Shown here: one piece after another, positions 11,964-40,160 of the stretch
Position numbering within the stretch: the first letter of the stretch is position 1
How the letters are laid out: every line of letters starts with the position of its first letter
From: a virus
Lineage: Duplodnaviria > Caudoviricetes
Reading direction: 5' to 3' (one strand)
IMG/VR virus record: IMGVR_UViG_3300025015_000047
Coordinates: 1-48,636 of that record
Length of the DNA: 48,636 bases
Translations under genes and position numbers: made by a program
Notes under the pieces: generated by a model
Database searches by the model: none
Told to the model about the DNA's origin: nothing
What the model saw: the letters and a program-made list of their open reading frames with translations, nothing else

Positions 11964-11966
11964 CAT

Positions 11967-12036
11967 GGCAGGGCGCGGCCCGGCAAGGTAGGGCAGGGCA
12001 TGGCTCGGCCTGGCTTGGCGTGGCGAGGCAGGGTAC
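11967..12036 (+). ncRNA. GGY-NN pentamer array 1 (one unit: 13 pentamers + GGTAC); putative guide/structural RNA
   Basis: GGCAG GGCGC GGCCC GGCAA GGTAG GGCAG GGCAT GGCTC GGCCT GGCTT GGCGT GGCGA GGCAG GGTAC; fills the gap between stop 11963 and ATG 12041. The repeat is certain; RNA function is inferred. Confidence 0.75.
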
Positions 12037-12040
12037 AAGG

Positions 12041-12586
12041 ATGCTAGAAGTTCTTAGTCGTCTAAAGTTTGAAGATTCAAAGAAGATCGACTGGCTACCT
12101 GGGTCGCGAGTCAAGATGTTTATGGCGTTGGCTCCCGACATCAAAGCCTGGGCTGTTGGGATCGATCCCGGCAGGAACTTTGGGATTGCGATCGCCACCA
12201 AGGGCTACGTTGTTGTCTATGATGGAAGCCTCCCACAGCAACCAGAAAAATGGAAGTATGGTGTCTTGGCGATCGATCTGGTCAAGCGCATCTTCTCGGG
12301 ACCTCCCCAGAACTTCCAAGTGGGGATTGTTGAGGGTCCGGCGTTCAATGCCCGATATGGTCAAGTTTCGTTGGCCGAGGCGAGATTCGGATTCCTGTAC
12401 GGACTGATCGAAGTTGGGGTCAAAGATGTTCGAGTAGCGGCCCCGGCTAGCATTCGAAAGGTCGTCTTGGGAGGAGGTCGATATCCGGTACCGTATGAAA
12501 CTTGGCCCAGATTGTCCACAAATGGAACAGATGCGTTGCTAGCCCTAGGATTTGCCCTCTTGACAATGGACAAATCCGGCGTATAA
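12041..12586 (+). CDS. ruvC: RuvC-like Holliday junction resolvase
   Basis: VGIDPGRNFGIA, IVEGPAF, LAEARFG, PASIRKVVLG, TDALLA. The ORF track's N-terminal extension through the array is discounted. Confidence 0.8.
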   Translation: MLEVLSRLKFEDSKKIDWLPGSRVKMFMALAPDIKAWAVGIDPGRNFGIAIATKGYVVVYDGSLPQQPEKWKYGVLAIDLVKRIFSGPPQNFQVGIVEGPAFNARYGQVSLAEARFGFLYGLIEVGVKDVRVAAPASIRKVVLGGGRYPVPYETWPRLSTNGTDALLALGFALLTMDKSGV

Positions 12587-12587
12587 T
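12560..12587 (+). promoter_or_regulatory. Consensus sigma70-type promoter upstream of array 2
   Basis: TTGACA (12560-12565), 16-bp spacer, TATAAT (12582-12587); predicted start about 12594, just before the first pentamer at 12596. Confidence 0.8.
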
Positions 12588-12595
12588 GGATTCAT

Positions 12596-12717
12596 GGCGC
12601 GGCTAGGCGCGGCTAGGCGAGGCAAGGCTGGGCAGGGCGAGGTACGTGGCGAGGCCAGGCAAGGCGAGGCAGGGCGTGGCGAGGCAAGGCGAGGCATGGC
12701 GGGGCGAGGCGAGGTAC
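12596..12717 (+). ncRNA. GGY-NN pentamer array 2 (two units: 9 and 13 pentamers, each + GGTAC)
   Basis: NN series GC TA GC TA GA AA TG AG GA | GGTAC GT | GA CA AA GA AG GT GA AA GA AT GG GA GA | GGTAC; intergenic. Confidence 0.78.
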
Positions 12718-12745
12718 AGGGGTAGACTAACAACAAGGAGAGAAA

Positions 12746-13531
12746 ATGACCAAAAGGGTCTTGATTCTAAGCGATACGCACTGTGGGCACGAGGTTGGGC
12801 TGACACCGCCCAAATGGAATCCGCAATACCCAGAGTTTCCGGCCCTCCAGAAGATGTCGGACTATCGAGCCTACCTCTGGGACAAGTTCAAGTCAGAGTT
12901 GGACGAGTGGCGGCCCTTTGACGTTTGCATCGCCGACGGGGATATGATCGATGGTCGCGGTGAACGCATAGGTGGGACAGAGGAAATCTTCGTCGACCGA
13001 GTACAGCAAGTCGAGATGGCAGCAGAAATCCTCGAAACCGTGAGGGCAAAGGAGTTGTATGTCGCTCGGGGTACGGATTATCACGTCGGACCCTATGAGA
13101 ACTTCGAGGACGGTATTGGTAAGTTGGTCGACGTAACGCGCACCGGAGATGTCCTGAACATCGACATCGCAGGTTTGATGTTCAATGTGCGCCACCACGT
13201 TGGGGGTTCACAAGTACCCCACGGTAGAGCCACAGCGCTCCTCCGGGATTGGTCATGGAACATTATCTGGTCTTCAATGCAGGAGTTTCCAAAGGCAGAT
13301 GTGATTATCCGTGCCCATGTCCATTACCACCTGGCAGTAGATCAGCCCGGTTCGCTGGCGATGACCACGCCCGGACTCCAAGGCTACGGAACCCGTTATG
13401 GAGAACGCCGCCTGAGCGGCCTTATCCACTTTGGGTTCATTCTGTTCGATATCAATAGCAAGGAGGACTTTGCATGGACGAAACGTATCTTCCCCTTCCC
13501 CAGACCCCCGGTCTCCGTATCCGAAGCATAA
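12746..13531 (+). CDS. Calcineurin-like metallophosphoesterase
   Basis: LSDTHCGH, DGDMIDG, RGTDYH, VRHH, RAHVH motifs; AAGGAG RBS. Confidence 0.85.
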   Translation: MTKRVLILSDTHCGHEVGLTPPKWNPQYPEFPALQKMSDYRAYLWDKFKSELDEWRPFDVCIADGDMIDGRGERIGGTEEIFVDRVQQVEMAAEILETVRAKELYVARGTDYHVGPYENFEDGIGKLVDVTRTGDVLNIDIAGLMFNVRHHVGGSQVPHGRATALLRDWSWNIIWSSMQEFPKADVIIRAHVHYHLAVDQPGSLAMTTPGLQGYGTRYGERRLSGLIHFGFILFDINSKEDFAWTKRIFPFPRPPVSVSEA

Positions 13532-13624: not shown

Positions 13625-14200
13625 ATGTTGCAGGTCTTGAAAGTACGACTCTGTGGGGCGTCCCAGATGATTCTGCACAACGGCCAAACAGCCAATCCCT
13701 TGAACAAGTTCGCCAAGCAACTGAAAGCCGTCAGCAGGAAGAAGAACAAGACGGAGGACGACATGGAGGAGCTGGCGAAGATCGAATTCTTGGCCGGCTG
13801 GTACCAGAATCCGGCGGGGGCGTACACACTCCCAGCCCACAACATCGAGGCAACGATGCTGGAGGGAGCAAAGAAGAACAAGAACGGTAAGCTCATCCAG
13901 AGTGGGGCGTTCGTTGTCGATGACCCGATCCTAGTCTTTCCTGGATCGAATCTGAACCCAGAGGAGCTGTGGAAGCGGGGCGAGAATGCCCTGATGGTCT
14001 CCGTTCGAGTTCAGCGCAATCGAGTTATGAGAACTAGGCCGACCGTCCCTCAAGGATGGACAACGGAGGTGGAGATCAGGTTCGATCCCCAAATCATCGA
14101 ACCCCCGGCGATTGTCCAGGCTCTTGAGGTTGCCGGTTTGGAGCGGGGCTTGGGGGATTGGCGACCTAAGTATGGTCGGTTTCTCGTAGAGCAAGTCTAG
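13625..14200 (+). CDS. Standalone RAMP/Cas7-like RNA-binding protein; candidate effector of the GGY-NN arrays
   Basis: 191 aa. N-terminal strand ending in G (LKVRLCGASQMILHN), LPAHNIEATM..GA (RAMP IPxxxxxG-like helix), basic thumb VRVQRNRVMRTRP, W..EVEIRFD, and C-terminal glycine-rich loop AGLERGLGDWRPKYGRFLV. Strong AGGAGG RBS; the array begins at its stop codon. Confidence 0.75.
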   Translation: MLQVLKVRLCGASQMILHNGQTANPLNKFAKQLKAVSRKKNKTEDDMEELAKIEFLAGWYQNPAGAYTLPAHNIEATMLEGAKKNKNGKLIQSGAFVVDDPILVFPGSNLNPEELWKRGENALMVSVRVQRNRVMRTRPTVPQGWTTEVEIRFDPQIIEPPAIVQALEVAGLERGLGDWRPKYGRFLVEQV

Positions 14201-14452
14201 GTACGCGGCCCGGCGCGGCAAGGCTCGGCAGGGCAGGGCATGGCGAGGCGAGGTACGTGGCAAGGTGCGGCGTGGCTTGGCTGGGCGCGGCTTGGCGAGG
14301 CAGGGCGAGGTACGAGGCGTGGCGTGGCTAGGCTTGGCCGGGAGAGGCTTGGCAAGGCCCGGCAGGGCGAGGCGAGGCGAGGTACGTGGCAAGGCTTGGC
14401 CTGGTGGGGCGTGGCTCGGCGAGGTGAGGCAAGGCTGGGCGAGGCAAGGTAA
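14200..14452 (+). ncRNA. GGY-NN pentamer array 3 (four units of 9, 10, 13 and 12 pentamers separated by GGTAC-GN)
   Basis: GGTACGC | CC GC AA TC AG AG AT GA GA | GGTACGT | AA GC GT TT TG GC TT GA AG GA | GGTACGA | GT GT TA TT CG GA TT AA CC AG GA GA GA | GGTACGT | AA TT CT GG GT TC GA GA AA TG GA AA | GGTAA. Only one pentamer (GGAGA) deviates from GGY. Confidence 0.82.
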
Positions 14453-14458
14453 ACAAAA

Positions 14459-14477
14459 GGCCCGAATGACTCGGGCC
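14459..14477 (+). other. Hairpin immediately 3' of array 3
   Basis: GGCCCGA-ATGAC-TCGGGCC, a 7-bp perfect stem preceded by ACAAAA. Confidence 0.6.
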
Positions 14478-14489
14478 ACAATAGATGTG

Positions 14490-14520
14490 GAAGGGCGGCC
14501 CTAGAGCCGCCCTTCTTCGT
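14490..14520. terminator. Likely intrinsic terminator between the convergent arms
   Basis: GAAGGGCGGC-CCTAGA-GCCGCCCTTC 10-bp stem followed by TTCGT; located exactly where + and - transcription converge. The U-tract is weak. Confidence 0.65.
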
Positions 14521-14828
14521 TACCCTTCGTTGATTTCGCTTGACCGAACCGAGATACCCATCCGCTCGGCCAGGGGCTTCACGGCATATCCATATCCGAG
14601 CGTAGCGGTCAGGATTGCCGAGATGGCCACGACAACGGCGTTGACGTAGACTTCAGACTCCGGGACGAACTGGATCAGGAACCACATGGCCGCAAAGCCA
14701 AGGGCTCCACCCAAGGCCCCAAGCCGAAGGTGCGTCTCTTGTTCAACCCCCAAAAACTTCAAACTCTGAACGAACAGAATGACGAACGCGCCGATCTGAA
14801 CACCCGCAAGAGCAATTGACAGATCCAT
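14520..14828 (-). CDS. Small membrane protein with about 3 TM helices (holin-like)
   Basis: Three hydrophobic segments and a charged C-terminus; last gene of the late arm; GGAGG RBS. Confidence 0.6.
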   Translation of the reverse strand: MDLSIALAGVQIGAFVILFVQSLKFLGVEQETHLRLGALGGALGFAAMWFLIQFVPESEVYVNAVVVAISAILTATLGYGYAVKPLAERMGISVRSSEINEG

Positions 14829-31352: not shown

Positions 31353-34300
31353 TTACTTACGAACCTTAGCCTTTTCTTGACCTTCTGCCATCTTGGCCAG
31401 AAGTTCCTCTTCCTCTGGTGATAAGCCCCCAGTTGTTCCTCCACCCCCGCCCGATCGGGTCAAGCTGGCCCCTCCCAATGGGGGCAAGTTGCCCCCGGCC
31501 CCACCAGAGCCCAACCTCCTCCCGGCCTGGAGCAGTTCTCGCCCCTCGGCAGCACCACGATAGCCCAGAGGGATGTAGGACAAACGCCGGGTAGGCGTCC
31601 GGGTTCCACCACCCCCTCCACGCCTGCCTCCCCCTCCACCGCCACCTCCGCCCCCTCTAGTTGTGGTAACTTCACCAAGGTAATACTGTGCCCAGACAGG
31701 ATGGGACATGCCCCACATATCCTTCATGGCATAGTATTGATCGATCAGGCCAGATAAGGTTGGATCCTGCTCCCTGGCAGCGGCCCGCTCCGATTGGCTG
31801 AGGGACATGTACCAACTGAAGGTTGTCCAGAAGTCCTCCCCAAGCCGCCCCGTCACAAGTCCCCGAAATTGGTCCTGCTCCTCTCGGGCCTGTGAGCGGC
31901 TCGCAAGCTCCTCATCACCCACCGGCTGGTTGTATCCAAGCTCCCTCAAGGTCCGTTCTAGGATGGCCTCAAACTGCTGGGCGTCTTCGGGATTCCGCCA
32001 ATCGGCCGTGGAGGTTGTCCGTCGGAACGCCTCCATCCACCCGTCATCGCCCTCATTCCGACGGAATGTATCCATAAAGTCGTCGTAGGCGGCCCCAGGT
32101 GGGACACGATTGAGAAGGTTCCAGATGCGCTCATCCCGTCCCGCAGCGGCCTCTCCAACCCGCAACTCTGCATTCTGAGCCTGACGATCTTCCATGGATA
32201 GGATGGCCCGCCCATAAAGGCCCTGCCGAATGTCTTGAACCGTGAAACGATCCCCGTACCGGGCCTGCATCCACTCGATGATGTCTTCCTCAGTCGGACG
32301 ACCATCCGGCCCAAACTGACGTAGGAAGTTCCTCTCAAGAAGTTCCCGCCCCTCGGGGGTTGTTGCCTTCCCAACCTCTTCGTAGTACCGCTCTTGGAAG
32401 TTGTGAACCCAGACGTAGTTGATTGCCGAGTGAATATCGTCGGTTTCGATCCGCCACTGCTCCAACCCAGCCGCATTGGTCTCCGCAACCAGCATGAGAC
32501 CTAGGTCCTCCGGCCGGTTGAGCGCGGCGTTCATGAAGTTGGCCTCAGCAAAACGGGTCTGCATCTCCCTCATCATGGGGGCCGCAATGGCAGGTAGGCG
32601 GTCCAGCCACGTCTGGTAGTCCCGCTGGTAGTCAGCGTAGACCTCATACCGATCAGGATCCCACGACGGAGCCCCATCCAGTAGGGTGTGCCACCACAGG
32701 TTACGGAAGTCCTCGTAGACCAACTGTTCGGGCTTGTAGCCGATAACCCAATCACGGGGCGCTAAGGGGTACCGCAGTTCCAGGTCTGCTACCTCGGCCG
32801 CATATCGCCGCTGGATTTCAATTTCGACCGCGGGGTTGTTACCGGCCGGCAGGGCATGTAGAGCTTGGTCTCTCACCTGTCGAATACGCTCCCACTCAGC
32901 CATATACTCATGCCGCTGGCGCTGGGATTCTATGTTGAACGCCACGATGACGTTGTAGCTCATCCCATCCACAGACTCGTAGGATGAGGAAACCCGACTG
33001 ACCCGATCATAATATGCCTGGGGGCTCTCTCGGGTCGGGTCATAGGGCTCTGATCCAGACGGAACCCGAACCCAGGAGAAAGCCGTATAGAGGTTGGCGG
33101 CGTAGTTCGCTGGCACGTCATTGATGCGGCTGGTGATGATGCCCCACATCTGCTCGATATCCTTCGGTAGCTCCAACATGTGCGCCCCAAGAACATCGTT
33201 GGCAGCCCACCGCAGGCGGGCATTCTCGGCCCTGGTGTAGAGTAGGCGGGCATCCGCGTCTGTGTGCATTCTTGGATAGATCCCCGTGAAGTAGCCCAGA
33301 GTCGCAGTCAACCAGTCATCCGTCTGAATATGGCCGTAGGCTTCTTCCCATAGCCTCTGGGCCGCCGGGTCCTCGCCCCGAGCATACATGTCCAAGGCAT
33401 TCTGTGCCGTATCCAGAAGCGCCCACCTTTGAGCGTCCGTCATGCTTGGATCGGCAATTTGCTCCAGGAAGCTGATTAGGATCTGCTGCTCGACTAGGAA
33501 GTCGATGTAGGATGCGTCGGGATCCAAAAGTTCCATCGCCAAACGACCAAATGTCGTCTGCCGGGCCACTCTCTTCAGAAGGGCATTAGCAACCGGTGGG
33601 ATAAGCTGTGCTTGGGGCAGCAAACCCATCGGCTGGTAGATGTCAGCGTCCAACGTCCCCGTAACCCGGAAGAGAAGCGGCACCCAAGGCGATGGGGATG
33701 CCCCAAACATCGACAGGGAACGCAACGCGATGCTGGTTGCGATAGTCCCAAACCCTACATCCTGGTCGGTCATCTCCTGAAGATCGTAGTAATCCAGGTT
33801 TGGGAAGACGTAGCGCATGGATAACGGCCCAGTCGGGTTCCACCACATCCCGTTCCCCAAGGGGATCAGGCCCCGCATGGACGGCAGCGGTTCCCCCCTG
33901 GATGTTGCAAAGCCGTGCTGCCAGGCGACCATGCTGGTGTTGCTCATGTACCGTAGGTACCATCCAACCAACTCTGGATCGTGAACCATGGCCCCCAACC
34001 AGAATGGGATCGATCGGGATGGGAACATCCAGAACGGGACGACATTCTTCATCATCCGGTCGAACTGAGAGAACTGATGGTAGCCGATGAAGATACGGTT
34101 GGTCTCTTCGAGGACGCCCCGATAGTTGCGACCCAAGAACTCGCCCCCACTCATGACGGCCTCTTCACCAAGCGCCATGTTCTCGACGTAGCCACGCCCA
34201 ATGCGTTGGATGAGGGTCTGCTGCTCAGGAGATAGCTGACGGAAGAGGACATCCCCCTCAACCATTCGATTACGAATGTGAGAGCGTATGTCATCCGTCA

Positions 34301-37300
34301 ATTGACGGAACTGATTGACGAAGGCTGTTTGGTCGTCCAGAGCCCGGAAGTAAGCCACCACGTTCGGGTCCATCATCTCCCGGCTAGGATATCGGAACCG
34401 ACGACTACCAAGCCCCATCGGGATGCCCTCGCGCTCGGCCTCTCTCATAATACGGGCTTCCCACGCCGAGATTAGTTCCTCAAGATGCCTCTCGATCTGT
34501 GCTTCCCGACGAAAGTCACCAGCCGCCGCATAGGCGTGCATCCGCATCCGAAGATGTTCAGCCAAGTTATCGAATGAATCAGTCGCCATTCGTCCATCAG
34601 GAAGTCTCTGTCCCCCATACAGATCGTTGACACTCCGACCGCTGTCAAAACTGAAGGGCTCCTGAACATTCGGCCCTATCATCTCTCCCCATACACCCCG
34701 CCTCAGGTTTTCCTGTCGAGCCTGTAGCGATGCTTGTGCCGCCGCTCTAGCCTGGGCTACCTCGGGAGCAGGAGCCTGAACCCCAGGCGGGGACGCATCC
34801 AACGGCAACCACTCTACAGATCCCTCGGGGAACAGGACATAGCGGTAGGGTTGATCCGTTCGGCTTGTGGCCGCGTCAATGGCCTCCTGAAGTCTTCTCT
34901 CATAGTCCGGTCCGGGCGCAACCGTTACATTGTTGACACCCTGACCATGTTCAAACTCATACCGAATAGCCGCCCGCCGACCATCTTGGTATTGTTGCTC
35001 TGTTACATAGGCAACCCGTATTCTCTCTTGGTGATCCGTCCACGTTCCAACCCGTAGTCCGGCATATCCTTCGGCGTCCGTTAGAGTTCCGCCAAATCTA
35101 CCAAATCTTCCCGGCTGGGCACTTGGGTCAGGTTGCCCATGGTAGACAACCCTTAGCCCTTGATGTTCAGCTAGTTCCCGGTTCCTATCTGCAATCTGAC
35201 GTAGGGACGGGGGCGGGGGTGCTTCCGGAACCGTAACCGGCCTGGTTGCCCTGGCGATCCGCTCGGCGGCCTCGGCCTGTTCTCTGGCAATGAGTTCCGC
35301 GGCCCCTAGGAGTTCCCCTTGCTGATTCCGAAGCGTCCGCACCGGTGTATCCAACCAGGTAGCAACTTCGGGGCTGGCAGCGGTTCCATTGAATCCAAGG
35401 CCCCGGAGAAACTCATTAGGTACGGAACCCCAAGTCGATGAGACCGTCGTAAATGCCCCACCCGTATGAGAAAGGACTCTCAACGACCCATCAGGGTTTA
35501 GTTCTATCGTATAGCCCGCCGCCTCCAAGAACGATCGCGGCGTAAACAGTTCGCCGGATTCAACCAGGGCCTGAAAGGCCGCCGGATCTGCCTGCATTAG
35601 ATGCTGGGACTCCTCCAGGGCTCTTGTGAGAATGGTGTCTGCGGCCCGGTACTCCCCTGCGATGATCTCATAGACCTGTCGCCAACGCATGTTCCGCGTA
35701 CGAGGGGAGTAGGGGACATTGAGCGCCCAGGCCAAAACCCAATTTCGGTGGTCTCCAACTCGGGCAAACCGACCAAGAGCTAGATCGAGATCTCCCAGAT
35801 ACAACGACTGCAAGTTCAGTTGAGCAGCCTGCTCTAGGGCCAGTCGAGATGCCGTGACATCGGCTGCCGTCCTTGCCGCCTGCAAAGCCCCCTGGGCTGC
35901 CTCGTTGAGATCGGCCCGCAGGTTCGATAGGGCGGCGGATGTCCGTCCCATCTGCGCCCCTGCCCTCGCTGCGTCCCTTCGGATAGATGGCCCTTCCTCA
36001 CTAAAGAGTTCATTCAACTGCTGAGCCCCCGCCTCGTTACCATCCGCCCGCAGACGACCTATGTCATCTCGCAAGCCAGCATCAGCCTCATCCAAAAGGT
36101 TCCGCCCAGGAGGAATGTCGACAGCCTCCGGGGCCGCTGCCGGAGTTACGGTAACTTCTGGGGCGGCTGTTGGGGCGGCGGGCATAGCATCCAATGCCTC
36201 TCTCAGAAGGCGGGCATCCTCTCTCATGAGGTAGAATTCCTGCATTCCCTCCTCGTATGCTCCCTCGCCCAGGAGGATGTCTTCTAGGCGCTGTAATTCT
36301 GCCTGTGCTTCCCCCCTGGTTCCCTCCCATACGCCAGTGGGTCCCTCAACCCTGATCCTTTCGGGGATGGCCGTGGGCGCGGCCTCAACAGCCGCCCTTG
36401 AAGGCAAGCCTACATTGTCAACAACGACCCTAGCCTCCCCGTCTGCAATGCCTCGCATCTGATCTCGAATATCCCGATATACACGGGTGGCAAGAGCAGA
36501 CGCGTCATCCTCGCTTATACCTAACCGCCCAGCAACACTCGCAATGGCCGCCCGAGCTTCCGAAGCGGGTAGAGGATTCTGCCCCCGCATGGTCCGGGAA
36601 AGTTTGGAGCCGGCATCATAGAGATCCCTTTGAACATCAGAGGCGAAGGTAATCTCGGCTTGTCGATGTCCAGCGCGCCATGAGCGGGTGAGAGTTTCTC
36701 TTGGTGCTGGTCTCACATTCTGCGTCGGCCCAGGATGTGCAGGGGCTTCAGGAGGTGGAGCGTCTGGGGGCACCTCCGGGAGGGTCCCAGCCTCCATCGC
36801 ATCGTCTACAGCATTGGCCGCCCCGTTCATCCTCTCGGGATCGATCGGCACGTCAGCACCTGGCATGTTGCGGAGGTTCTGCAAGTTCTGGGCCGCCTGA
36901 TCCTCCTCGAAGCCGGCCAGGATGTCATCAAACAACTGCCCTATGGAACGATCAATCTCCTCCGGCGTCCCACCCTGCTGAAGGATGTCCCGGACGCCCT
37001 GTTCAATCACGGCATGGGCGGCACGGGCGTTGGGGTCGTTCCCCAACAGGTTCATCATCCGGTTCATCAGGTCTTCGCTCAGGATCAGGGGGACACGGCC
37101 TCGGGTCCTCAACCCGGCAAGGAGATCCAGGACCTCTGTCATCCGGGACGGGTTGGCAATCCCGTACCCCGTCGTACTCCTACTCACCCGATAACGAAGG
37201 CTTCTCAACAGGGCCGATGCCACCGGATCTGCCTGACTCTCAAGAAGAGCGGCGGAAAGCCAATTATCCAGATGGTGTGCCATGATGGAAACATCAGTCT

Positions 37301-40160
37301 CATACAGGCGCAGGTAGGTTGCGGCTCGGGCGGTGACTTCGGTCCCCTCCCAGATGGCCCCTAAACCTCCAAGCCAGCCGTTCCAGGCCGGTATCCGTCC
37401 GTGGCGCACTCCCTCCTCAGCACCCATGCGGAACCACTCTACGAAGTTCCTTGGTAGACGGCCCTCGAGTGCCAGATCCTCTAGGCTACGGCCCCCAAGT
37501 TGGGTCGAATGTAGGACCATCCTAAGATCCTCGGGGAAGAAGGTCCCAAGTTCCTGGAATCTGGCCAGAATTGTGTCCAAGGACTGGAAAGGGTTTGAGC
37601 CCGTGATGATGGCTTTGAAGTAGGTATCAATGATGTTGTTGATGACAAAGGAAGGCCGGGCTCTCAGCACCATTGTCGTCCAGAAGCTCATGAACCCCTG
37701 ATAGGTGTCGTTGATAGCCACCATCGCCCGTACCAAGCCACTAACGTTGGATGAAGGGCGCACCATCACACCTTCGAGCCGACCAATCGCATCCTCAGGG
37801 ATCCCGTGAAGATCCCAAACGTTATCTATGTTTCTTGAGAAGTCACGAAATAGTTGTTGTGGATCAACACTATCCAGACCTAGCTCTCTCAGAATTCGAC
37901 GCACTCTCCCAATCGTGGCCGGCTCGTTGGTTTGGTGATACGCCCAAGCAATCAGACCCTCATCCAAATACCGAGTCCCCCGTGCTCCCCCAAGCCCCGG
38001 AAGAACTCTCAACTCCAAATACCTCTGCCGGAAGCGTTCGGAAAGCGCGTGCACTAGGCTCCGAGGCTCACTGGCAAACGCATTGGCCGAGCGGACCAGT
38101 TCCAGATCAGTTGCCGCAGTCCGTCCCGCCCCAGCCTCCCGACGCAAAACGACTAGCCGAGCCTCCGCTACCTCATCGGCGGCATCCGATACCATTGCAA
38201 CAAACTGCCGCTCCGTAAAGGGGGCAGCTTCGGTTCCTAGTCTCTCAATGAGTCCCCTGAACCGTCTCATCAGGTTGTCGGTCAGGCCATACCGTACCCG
38301 CTCGACGCCGGTCATCGGATTCGTCCTATCAAACATCCGATGAATAACATGCAACATCCCATCCGTCCCCGTCACCCGCTCCGTAGCGCGGGCGATCGTG
38401 CCCATAATGCGCCCACCCCATGACCGACCCCAAACATACGAAGCCGATAGATGTGCCATCCCTCTGAAGATCTCTCGGGCAGCCACAAATCCCCGCCCCA
38501 CGACCGGGGCGTGTTCCGCCATCTCCCATGCCGCCCGAACCCCCTTCCCAAGAGCCCCACCCAATGACCTTACAATATCATCAGCAAACGGGATGGAAAC
38601 ATAGTTGAATACGTCCGTGAGGCCCTGCCAAGCAAACTCCAGACCTTGGTCCGCATTGACCATCGTAAGCTGGCGCATCTCGTCTTGGCCAGGCAAGCGT
38701 CCCTGTTGAAGAATGAATAACCAGATGTTTCGGTTATCGGCCTCCCATCGCTCCTGGCCGTCCGCCAAAAACATGTAACTGGCTGTCCATCCACCCATTC
38801 CAACCGAATGGAACTCGGGATCATACGAGTCCCGCAAGGCCCCAACCGCCGCAGATCCCCTCTCAAACAGAGCGTTCATTTCATCTTGTGCCTGACGCCC
38901 GCTTGTCCACCTAATTATGCTTTTGGGGTCCATCCATCGATTGTACTGGTCCACAAGGTCCTGAATATCCTCCATGCGCCGAAGTGGGGCATCCCGGATT
39001 TCAACAGATTCTTGGATAATCTCCTCGGTCATCTCCGGGGAGACGCCCGACAACAACATCGTCTGACGAGCCCCATCCAGGTCGTCCGCTCGGATCTGAT
39101 TTATCACATGATGGCGAGATACCCCAAGCAGTTCGTCATGGGGCACTGGAGATTCAACCTCTTCACTAAAGACGGACTTGACCACCTCCACAATAGCAGC
39201 CGGAATCTCGGCTTCCAGCAATCCAACGAAGTTGGTTACATCTTGCGAGAACGTCTGCCACCCCGCGTCTTCTTCTAGTCTCTCAACAAAGGGAGCCTGC
39301 TCTATTGGCTCCTGACGTATTTCTCCGACGCCGGCCCGCCCACTTATCAACGCACGCGGCTCGGCACTCAAAGTGTAGGCCGGCTGAAAATACGTCCTCA
39401 AAATACCAGGAATCGCATTCTTGATAAGAGACCAATCCACTATGAGCCCACGCCAAGAAATGGAGGACGTTTTTACGAGGAAGTTTACGACAGGGTTCCG
39501 CCTACGCAACTCAATCCAGTCCTGCATCCGATTGAAGGTTAGGCGGTTCCACAAAGAGCCGGCATGTTGTAATAGATCCCGATCCTCAAAAGGCTGTACG
39601 GAGAATGTTCTTAGTTCCGTCTCTCCTCGATGGTACAGATAAACACTCTCACCCGAGGCCGGCGGTCGTCCTGTGATGCCCAGCGCCGATGGGAAGTTCA
39701 GCCACCCATTTTCTCGAAGAACCCCCCTTTGTGTCACCAGATGTTGGTATTCCCTCATCCGTTCTGAGTTTTCAATCCCCTCTAGGTTCCCCTCCGCCTC
39801 CATCTGTGAAATCTGGTTGTTGATCTCCACTACGTCCCAGTTCTGAGGACCTGCCGGACGAATGACGTGCCCGCCCGCCAAAATCGCTTCTGGGATCTGA
39901 GCATGTTCGGGTGGGGCCGCCTCCGCCTCCATAGGAATCTCTCCGACCCGCGGGCCGGGTTTTCCCCGGACCAAGGACATTGGAGACCATGCCCCCTGGG
40001 CAGGAGGAGCCCCCTGGGCGGGATGAAGAAGAAGAGAATCCGCGGGCCGTCTCTTTGGCCCCGGATCACCAGGCCCCTTTATCCCCCGACCCGTAGCAAC
40101 GTCCCTGAATTCCTTGGAGCGTGGATCCAGTCGAGGAAATCTCGATTGTTTGAGCGGCAT
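31353..40160 (-). CDS. Giant internal virion / DNA-ejection (polyvalent-type) protein, 2935 aa
   Basis: Very long helical ORF between portal and scaffold, with Pro/Ala linkers, a PFW.FPSR segment and a Gly-rich C-terminus. Confidence 0.7.
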   Translation of the reverse strand: MPLKQSRFPRLDPRSKEFRDVATGRGIKGPGDPGPKRRPADSLLLHPAQGAPPAQGAWSPMSLVRGKPGPRVGEIPMEAEAAPPEHAQIPEAILAGGHVIRPAGPQNWDVVEINNQISQMEAEGNLEGIENSERMREYQHLVTQRGVLRENGWLNFPSALGITGRPPASGESVYLYHRGETELRTFSVQPFEDRDLLQHAGSLWNRLTFNRMQDWIELRRRNPVVNFLVKTSSISWRGLIVDWSLIKNAIPGILRTYFQPAYTLSAEPRALISGRAGVGEIRQEPIEQAPFVERLEEDAGWQTFSQDVTNFVGLLEAEIPAAIVEVVKSVFSEEVESPVPHDELLGVSRHHVINQIRADDLDGARQTMLLSGVSPEMTEEIIQESVEIRDAPLRRMEDIQDLVDQYNRWMDPKSIIRWTSGRQAQDEMNALFERGSAAVGALRDSYDPEFHSVGMGGWTASYMFLADGQERWEADNRNIWLFILQQGRLPGQDEMRQLTMVNADQGLEFAWQGLTDVFNYVSIPFADDIVRSLGGALGKGVRAAWEMAEHAPVVGRGFVAAREIFRGMAHLSASYVWGRSWGGRIMGTIARATERVTGTDGMLHVIHRMFDRTNPMTGVERVRYGLTDNLMRRFRGLIERLGTEAAPFTERQFVAMVSDAADEVAEARLVVLRREAGAGRTAATDLELVRSANAFASEPRSLVHALSERFRQRYLELRVLPGLGGARGTRYLDEGLIAWAYHQTNEPATIGRVRRILRELGLDSVDPQQLFRDFSRNIDNVWDLHGIPEDAIGRLEGVMVRPSSNVSGLVRAMVAINDTYQGFMSFWTTMVLRARPSFVINNIIDTYFKAIITGSNPFQSLDTILARFQELGTFFPEDLRMVLHSTQLGGRSLEDLALEGRLPRNFVEWFRMGAEEGVRHGRIPAWNGWLGGLGAIWEGTEVTARAATYLRLYETDVSIMAHHLDNWLSAALLESQADPVASALLRSLRYRVSRSTTGYGIANPSRMTEVLDLLAGLRTRGRVPLILSEDLMNRMMNLLGNDPNARAAHAVIEQGVRDILQQGGTPEEIDRSIGQLFDDILAGFEEDQAAQNLQNLRNMPGADVPIDPERMNGAANAVDDAMEAGTLPEVPPDAPPPEAPAHPGPTQNVRPAPRETLTRSWRAGHRQAEITFASDVQRDLYDAGSKLSRTMRGQNPLPASEARAAIASVAGRLGISEDDASALATRVYRDIRDQMRGIADGEARVVVDNVGLPSRAAVEAAPTAIPERIRVEGPTGVWEGTRGEAQAELQRLEDILLGEGAYEEGMQEFYLMREDARLLREALDAMPAAPTAAPEVTVTPAAAPEAVDIPPGRNLLDEADAGLRDDIGRLRADGNEAGAQQLNELFSEEGPSIRRDAARAGAQMGRTSAALSNLRADLNEAAQGALQAARTAADVTASRLALEQAAQLNLQSLYLGDLDLALGRFARVGDHRNWVLAWALNVPYSPRTRNMRWRQVYEIIAGEYRAADTILTRALEESQHLMQADPAAFQALVESGELFTPRSFLEAAGYTIELNPDGSLRVLSHTGGAFTTVSSTWGSVPNEFLRGLGFNGTAASPEVATWLDTPVRTLRNQQGELLGAAELIAREQAEAAERIARATRPVTVPEAPPPPSLRQIADRNRELAEHQGLRVVYHGQPDPSAQPGRFGRFGGTLTDAEGYAGLRVGTWTDHQERIRVAYVTEQQYQDGRRAAIRYEFEHGQGVNNVTVAPGPDYERRLQEAIDAATSRTDQPYRYVLFPEGSVEWLPLDASPPGVQAPAPEVAQARAAAQASLQARQENLRRGVWGEMIGPNVQEPFSFDSGRSVNDLYGGQRLPDGRMATDSFDNLAEHLRMRMHAYAAAGDFRREAQIERHLEELISAWEARIMREAEREGIPMGLGSRRFRYPSREMMDPNVVAYFRALDDQTAFVNQFRQLTDDIRSHIRNRMVEGDVLFRQLSPEQQTLIQRIGRGYVENMALGEEAVMSGGEFLGRNYRGVLEETNRIFIGYHQFSQFDRMMKNVVPFWMFPSRSIPFWLGAMVHDPELVGWYLRYMSNTSMVAWQHGFATSRGEPLPSMRGLIPLGNGMWWNPTGPLSMRYVFPNLDYYDLQEMTDQDVGFGTIATSIALRSLSMFGASPSPWVPLLFRVTGTLDADIYQPMGLLPQAQLIPPVANALLKRVARQTTFGRLAMELLDPDASYIDFLVEQQILISFLEQIADPSMTDAQRWALLDTAQNALDMYARGEDPAAQRLWEEAYGHIQTDDWLTATLGYFTGIYPRMHTDADARLLYTRAENARLRWAANDVLGAHMLELPKDIEQMWGIITSRINDVPANYAANLYTAFSWVRVPSGSEPYDPTRESPQAYYDRVSRVSSSYESVDGMSYNVIVAFNIESQRQRHEYMAEWERIRQVRDQALHALPAGNNPAVEIEIQRRYAAEVADLELRYPLAPRDWVIGYKPEQLVYEDFRNLWWHTLLDGAPSWDPDRYEVYADYQRDYQTWLDRLPAIAAPMMREMQTRFAEANFMNAALNRPEDLGLMLVAETNAAGLEQWRIETDDIHSAINYVWVHNFQERYYEEVGKATTPEGRELLERNFLRQFGPDGRPTEEDIIEWMQARYGDRFTVQDIRQGLYGRAILSMEDRQAQNAELRVGEAAAGRDERIWNLLNRVPPGAAYDDFMDTFRRNEGDDGWMEAFRRTTSTADWRNPEDAQQFEAILERTLRELGYNQPVGDEELASRSQAREEQDQFRGLVTGRLGEDFWTTFSWYMSLSQSERAAAREQDPTLSGLIDQYYAMKDMWGMSHPVWAQYYLGEVTTTRGGGGGGGGGGRRGGGGGTRTPTRRLSYIPLGYRGAAEGRELLQAGRRLGSGGAGGNLPPLGGASLTRSGGGGGTTGGLSPEEEELLAKMAEGQEKAKVRK

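Follow-up and report, generated by a model that had tools for sequence, protein, structure and literature searches.

The phage DNA analysed here, a 48.6-kb record (48,636 nucleotides, called the window below), is best explained as carrying a locus of VIPR, a recently described RNA-guided system (bioRxiv 10.64898/2026.04.26.720920), in which the conserved word GGTAC-NN-GG splits a repeat array (array 3) into four units that likely mature as separate guide RNAs. The locus combines a Vipr-type gene, a unit grammar and a conserved junction, and whole units are turned over among its relatives. Published vrRNAs have 9-16 repeats, and their NN pairs read double-stranded DNA with every third base skipped, silencing transcription (bioRxiv 10.64898/2026.04.26.720920). 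According to the available part of 720927, Vipr subunits polymerise with one subunit per GGY/NN repeat.

The window is a virus record. Its replication genes lie on the plus strand, whereas the minus strand encodes terminase, portal and head proteins, with PHROGs matches to terminase, portal and major head protein. VIPR systems are mostly encoded by phages and have no CRISPR array, and we found no CRISPR-length tandem array in the window. It also holds an RNA ligase-family gene (PF09414; 1174-2175), on the same strand as the arrays and 10 kb upstream of them, and a 2935-aa open reading frame in the head-gene region (31353-40160, minus strand).

A Vipr homologue with a predicted RAMP-type fold

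Array 3 follows a gene (13625-14200, plus strand) whose 191-aa product is 33% identical over 192 aa (E 1e-34) to YP_009199429.1 of phage SUSP1, the protein named as Vipr in the available text of 759431. In a Foldseek search with the predicted structure (pLDDT 96), the top PDB matches were Csm3/Cas7-type chains (E 1.6e-6). Vipr itself is a stand-alone RAMP protein built of an RRM core, a thumb and a G-loop. The RAMP partner protein assumed in the original prediction is therefore real, by homology to SUSP1 Vipr and by its Csm3/Cas7-like predicted fold, and we assign the locus to phage VIPR because array 3 follows this gene.

The structure preprint lists 14 residues that contact GGY or DNA in the cryo-EM structures, and in an alignment to SUSP1 Vipr the window protein has the same amino acid at nine of them (H17, K33, K82, G87, K88, R138, D177, W178 and R179). 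It has K in place of R39, and E71, M72, C173 and position 175 are changed, so that the pyrimidine-pocket residues E71, M72 and C173 are not those of SUSP1. All four residues at which an alanine change abolished silencing, as described in the available part of 720927 (K33, K82, R138 and D177), are retained. No model in Pfam or NCBIfam matched the window protein, and its match in PHROGs is phrog_4652, of unknown function.

Grammar of the arrays

Array 3 (14200-14452, plus strand) opens with GGTAC-GC. Four runs of in-phase pentamers follow, with 10, 11, 14 and 13 pentamers each and with GT, GA and GT between them. Parsing thus bears out the original prediction that the 5-nt phase is broken only by four 7-nt GGTAC words; the 9, 10, 13 and 12 pentamers that it counted are the parsed numbers minus the terminal GGTAC or GGTAA of each unit, and its unit size of about 52-72 nt agrees with the measured junction spacings of 52, 57 and 72 nt. 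It had missed an in-phase degenerate pentamer, GGAGA, at 14341-14345.

The array begins inside the vipr gene: the G of the TAG stop codon is the first G of the first GGTAC, and this leading junction (GGTAC-GC-GG, 14200..14208) stands between the stop codon and unit 1. Unit 1 (14204..14256; 10 pentamers), whose boundaries follow from the overlap of one shared C proposed below, starts with C-GC-GG and ends in GGTAC. It is followed by unit 2 (14256..14313; 11 pentamers, GGTAC end), unit 3 (14313..14385; 14 pentamers, including the degenerate one at 14341) and unit 4 (14385..14452; 13 pentamers), which has no junction and ends in GGCAA-GGTAA. All four are candidate vrRNAs on the plus strand. Two hairpins are predicted after unit 4 (14459..14521, plus strand); the predicted fold of 14449-14525 reaches -40.5 kcal/mol (z -5.95), and the first hairpin also scores as a minus-strand terminator-like site. 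These hairpins are likely a 3' tail, a terminator or both.

Two further arrays lie upstream on the same strand. Array 1 (11964..12040, repeats 11967-12036) comprises only one unit, with 14 pentamers, and is flanked by genes on both sides at a distance of about 1.6 kb upstream from vipr; it starts with C-AT-GG and ends with GGTAC-AA-GG, after which the next gene follows. That open reading frame (12038-12586) had no match in Pfam, PHROGs or NCBIfam, and contains a GIDPG motif reminiscent of RuvC-type resolvases. Array 2 (12593..12721, repeats 12596-12717) has two units of 10 and 14 pentamers. It starts with C-AT-GG without the GGTA, 6 nt downstream of a perfect sigma-70-type promoter match (12560..12587, plus strand; TTGACA-16-TATAAT, 12/12, a consensus match only), and ends with a complete GGTAC-AG-GG before the next gene. 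The three arrays together therefore hold seven units of 10-14 repeats, which fit the published tracts of 9-16 GGY/NN repeats.

Unit ends are strongly marked. As originally claimed, five of the seven units end in GGCGA-GGTAC; of the other two, one ends in GGCAG-GGTAC and one in GGCAA-GGTAA. The dinucleotide AC occupies the NN position in six of 86 pentamers, all at unit ends (1.5e-8 by permutation over the three arrays). The 5' NN strings were said to differ from one another, and they are unrelated: units 1-4 share at most two NN at the best offset, and array 1 shares four with unit 1. GGTAC is frequent throughout the genome (45 occurrences on the plus and 52 on the minus strand), and what is special about it is its position within the arrays, not its presence.

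RNAfold of five local windows gave no fold common to the junctions. Between 11800 and 14700 there was no Rfam family at gathering score and no hammerhead ribozyme between units, and units joined by only 2 nt have no room for an interspersed ribozyme. Contigs from four DNA sequencing runs contained no array variant of the window phage; apparent array differences in them were ruled out as cross-mapping from array 2. The sequencing runs listed for the phage included no RNA run.

The junction word in two Vipr clades

We compared these arrays with those at 80 metagenome loci picked by similarity to the window Vipr protein. Relatives with 65-78% identical proteins show the same grammar wherever DNA is available, with internal junctions in four loci (L004, L005, L007 and L064) and GG[T/C/A]AC-NN leaders after vipr in L003-L008 and L064. 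A search by junction pattern, which forced at least one junction per locus, returned 23 viral loci, two of them the window phage itself. A Vipr-like gene adjoins the array in 21/21 of the non-self loci; these proteins are 21-24% identical to that of the window and form a separate group in a quick tree with long branches. This distant clade (L084-L106, except L089 and L097) shares the GGTAC junction. Its arrays are found upstream of vipr, and in place of a junction the final unit has a short inverted repeat, GGGCAATTTCGCCC, at its end.

Phase breaks are almost confined to the junction. Of 49 breaks in 130 unique arrays, 42 are insertions of 2 nt after GGTAC; four are 2 nt after GGTCG (in L040), one is 2 nt after GGCAC, and two are of 1 nt. 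In-array GGTAC is followed by NN-GG in 6/6 cases in the window, in 14/14 among the protein-picked relatives and in 26/26 among the pattern-picked loci, the last figure being biased by the selection; over the two Vipr clades this makes 46/46, array ends included. At other VIPR loci GGTAC is an ordinary repeat, in phase in 22/24 cases and with the +2 break in 0/24. In 55 unique units, all 43 occurrences of GGTAC are terminal and none is internal.

These comparisons redraw the proposed delimiter. The idea that NN=AC occurs only there holds for the window but not for the relatives, where GGCAC is found as a normal internal repeat, in phase in 21/22 cases; the signal is therefore the whole word GGTAC, not AC. 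Nor is it GGTAC-GN, since relatives also have AT, TT, AA, AC, AG and TA after GGTAC. By its distribution over these loci, the signal is GGTAC-NN-GG, rather than NN=AC or GGTAC-GN. The dinucleotide that follows GGTAC is biased (AT, GT and GC make up 31/39), as could be expected of a fixed motif no less than of a position that is read.

The placement of the word is informative as well. Arrays that end on GGTAC retain NN-GG in 9/9 rows, three of which are degenerate internal junctions of L101, and the full 9-mer stands at array ends in the window (12032 and 12713), twice in L005, and in L064 and L101, as expected of a terminal repeat. A leading junction is found in array 3, which is embedded behind the vipr frame, and the GGTA is missing from the start of array 2 after the promoter match. 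This is the pattern that would be expected if the word marked RNA ends, and it fits such a role without amounting to proof of cutting.

An alternative is that the junction is a filament boundary and not a cut site, either because one long RNA carries several Vipr filaments or because a sequence-blind host RNase trims between them. The +2 break is common to two words, GGTAC and the GGTCG of L040, which suggests that geometry may matter more than sequence, and the single Vipr subunit per repeat described in 720927 is also in line with this alternative. We nevertheless regard it as unlikely: GGTAC is near-invariant in two clades whose proteins are only 21-24% identical, GGCAC is read through, and the 9-mer is kept at array ends, where no next filament needs a register break.

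Several loci depart from this scheme. L040, whose Vipr is 36% identical to that of the window, has a very long staggered array of 88 repeats (L040:1967-2465) with a junction of GGTAG-GGTCG plus 2 nt; that a second fixed word carries the same +2 break is also in line with the division into units proposed here. Unbroken tracts of 21-33 repeats without a junction, above the published 9-16, are present in L074, L075, L076 and L069. Single vrRNAs with degenerate repeats (GCCAT, GCCCC) and a nearly fixed NN string occur in eight alphaproteobacterial and related loci (L046, L049, L056, L059, L060, L061, L109 and L110), suggesting a conserved target or fold. At L079:1190-2093 (minus strand) there are at least seven tailed vrRNA-like tracts on the strand opposite to the vipr match.

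Turnover of units and their constrained 3' end

It had been proposed to align arrays from related phages, and this shows units gained, lost and duplicated between close relatives. Phages of the second clade that are 93-97% identical outside the arrays have three to five units each, with recurring units; L091 has an extra unit between junctions and L096 a duplicated one. Identical arrays were recovered in separate records (L086 and L093; L087, L092 and L103; L090 and L104), a recurrence that speaks against errors of assembly. Relatives also show slippage by single pentamers and units of chimeric make-up, so that array change is not confined to junctions, and odd units of 3, 5, 17 and 19 repeats occur among them.

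This variation in unit number and order, including the duplication in L096 and the extra unit in L091, is what one would see if the junctions were scars of unit duplication or insertion, sites of recombination or template switching with no role at the RNA level. Such an origin seems to us quite improbable. Junctions persist both next to vipr, where the array starts, and where arrays end in front of genes, the GGTA is missing where an array starts at a promoter match, and array 3 as a single guide of 48 repeats would be three times the published size (9-16; bioRxiv 10.64898/2026.04.26.720920).

The slippage, together with a 70-aa open frame (14240-14452) that ends at the final TAA of array 3, could also recall a plain microsatellite shaped by slippage, or else a short repeat that is translated. 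The data largely refute this, and we give it next to no credence: GGY does not vary, whereas each NN position holds about 3.0-3.8 bits, such arrays adjoin vipr at locus after locus among the relatives, all three frames of L004 contain stops, and the junction spacing keeps no frame.

Within the units, variability falls towards the 3' end. Over 40 units ending in GGTAC, positions -1, -2 and -3 have entropies of 0, 1.8 and 2.3 bits, compared with 3.2-3.6 bits at inner positions. In junction arrays, 79% of the 80 NN at -2/-3 consist of two purines, versus 39% of 307 inner positions; in 121 other VIPR arrays the corresponding values are 38% and 31%. A GA/AG bias of the last positions had been noticed originally, and the purine bias at -2/-3 is more pronounced where arrays have junctions than in VIPR arrays of other kinds. 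As read from this sequence variation, the 3' end of junction-array units is constrained.

A metallophosphoesterase-like neighbour

Between array 2 and vipr lies a metallophosphoesterase-like gene (12746..13531, plus strand), whose product matches Pfam Metallophos with an E of 0.0023, below the cut-off. A homologue stands beside vipr in 11/107 loci (L003-L007, L019, L024, L028, L040, L072 and L108), which include distant loci and loci without junctions. None was found in the second Vipr clade within flanks of up to 2.5 kb, a result that speaks for the junction as a mere filament boundary, and our searches identified no nuclease common to the two junction-bearing clades. The gene is perhaps an unlisted accessory of VIPR, since the word phosphoesterase is absent from the main text of bioRxiv 10.64898/2026.04.26.720920. 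Judging by its distribution over these loci, we consider it a candidate accessory, not a required processing enzyme.

Search for targets

Targets were sought in viral contigs only, with exact seeds of 16-18 nt followed by extension, under the 1-nt skip rule and at an NN match of 80% or more. Six such scans, with window units 2, 3 and 4, unit 2 of array 2, and units of L086 and L085, gave nothing beyond chance. We accepted as a target none of the 41 loci of unit 4 (best 22/28), the one locus of unit 2 (19/24), the six loci of array 2 unit 2 (best 26/30, in one virus family), the 44 loci of the L086 unit (best 25/30) or the 16 loci of the L085 unit (best 24/36), nor the best full-length match of unit 3 (23/30). 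Unit 1 and array 1, compared with their own genome, the relatives' loci and G001, stayed at shuffle level. No self-target reaches 80%, the best own-genome matches of units 1-4 being 15/20, 15/22, 18/28 and 18/26 nt.

One partial match deserves description. The lead dinucleotide and first nine NN of unit 3 match 20/20 nt in the HK97-type portal gene of L200, in frame and with the skipped base on the wobble position, and the 3' GA GA GA is unmatched. Against a profile built from 57-87 portals, which were selected while the motif was masked and are no more than 40-50% identical to L200, these ten positions reach 27 bits; the highest score among 1000 shuffles was 19. The lead GA of unit 3, found at 1/39 junctions, fits the invariant D/E of the portal motif. 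The number of 20/20 matches expected by chance is about 0.5 over the four window units scanned, as estimated by hand from hit counts. Landing in a virion or packaging gene is common by chance, because 12 of the 52 distinct open frames under 112 seed matches hit such families. No further unit, whether from the window or from four close relatives, also pointed to G001, the phage with the portal gene. In the best match of array 2 unit 2 (26/30, in another virus) the 3' GA GA is paired, so the two best leads disagree on whether this end is a handle. The unit 3 match is within chance, and from the sequences compared here we would put the portal as its target at roughly even odds.

A more elaborate account would make GGTAC-NN-GG a minimal processing repeat of 9 nt, cut by the Vipr filament or by the phosphoesterase, with GA-GA-AC as a handle. 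Guides would be read from the junction dinucleotide, and unit 3 would silence the portal of rival phages, its skipping of wobble bases covering a whole rival family. Taken together, we see this as a tentative possibility that we doubt in its full form.

Relation to known systems

The original prediction framed the feature as new. VIPR and a class of staggered arrays are already part of the 2026 preprint (10.64898/2026.04.26.720920), in which the legend of Fig. S18 mentions 'staggered arrays with overlapping vrRNAs' that overlap by 1 nt. As far as the available text goes, sequencing in that work confirmed ribozyme and single-vrRNA arrays, not staggered ones (bioRxiv 10.64898/2026.04.26.720920). 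Array 3 resembles the staggered arrays in its back-to-back GGY/NN units with no spacer and no tail, and if '1 nt overlapping' is taken to mean a GGYNN end and a YNNGG start that share one base, the result is exactly the +2 break seen here. Array 3 thus probably belongs, by the form of its repeats, to this published class, itself without experimental confirmation. The available text of 10.64898/2026.04.26.720920 names no junction word, handle or processing route for staggered arrays, and GGTAC is absent from the text of its supplement, of which the figures or data S1-S4 may already show the junction. The word 'staggered' does not occur in the accessible parts of the VIPR-related preprints 759431 and 760802. 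To published VIPR the present analysis adds a rule for the junction, shows that two distant clades conserve it, and describes the logic of its placement and the turnover of units.

The window locus resembles type II VIPR (SUSP1 and a P. fulva prophage) in several respects, with a Vipr homologue of 33% identity, a phage location, 10-14 repeats per unit and arrays both upstream and downstream of vipr. In SUSP1 a structured tail, about 40 nt long, stands between one vrRNA and the next, whereas units 1-3 of the window abut and hairpins appear only after unit 4. The repeats are almost all GGC (538/551 internal positions of arrays with junctions), GGT being used mainly at the junction itself, and the neighbouring gene is metallophosphoesterase-like, not an annotated DNA-binding vap1. 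VIPR types I-VII are distinguished by clade and by a type-specific gene among vap1-6.

Pre-crRNA arrays of class 1 CRISPR systems are processed by Cas6, and their guides are held by a backbone of Cas7/Csm3 subunits. By general analogy, the window locus shares with them a filament protein of RAMP fold and a fixed word that stands between variable guides and is kept at the array end. It differs in that its arrays have neither direct repeats of 25-40 nt nor contiguous spacers; the fixed word is 9 nt long with two variable bases, and specificity lies in gapped dinucleotides.

A model for array maturation

We propose that each unit ends in GGT-AC and the next starts with C-NN-GG, the C being common to both, and that this shared C would correspond to the 1-nt overlap of the published 'staggered' arrays. 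At the +2 register break one Vipr filament may end and another begin, and the junction exposed between them could be cut or trimmed, taking over from the structured tail that type II vrRNAs have. Most of the specificity would reside in the first dinucleotide and the 5' 9-11 NN, the last two or three NN (GA/AG, AC) would form a constrained end, and the targets may be genes of competing phages.

VIPR has been proposed as the precursor of class 1 CRISPR. For the maturation of multi-guide VIPR arrays, the locus described here offers an explicit junction rule that can be mutated, together with natural variants and a compact cassette of four guides. If the junction is a cut site, this would amount to a pre-crRNA-like processing without Cas6, and would provide a simple format for multiplexed guides.
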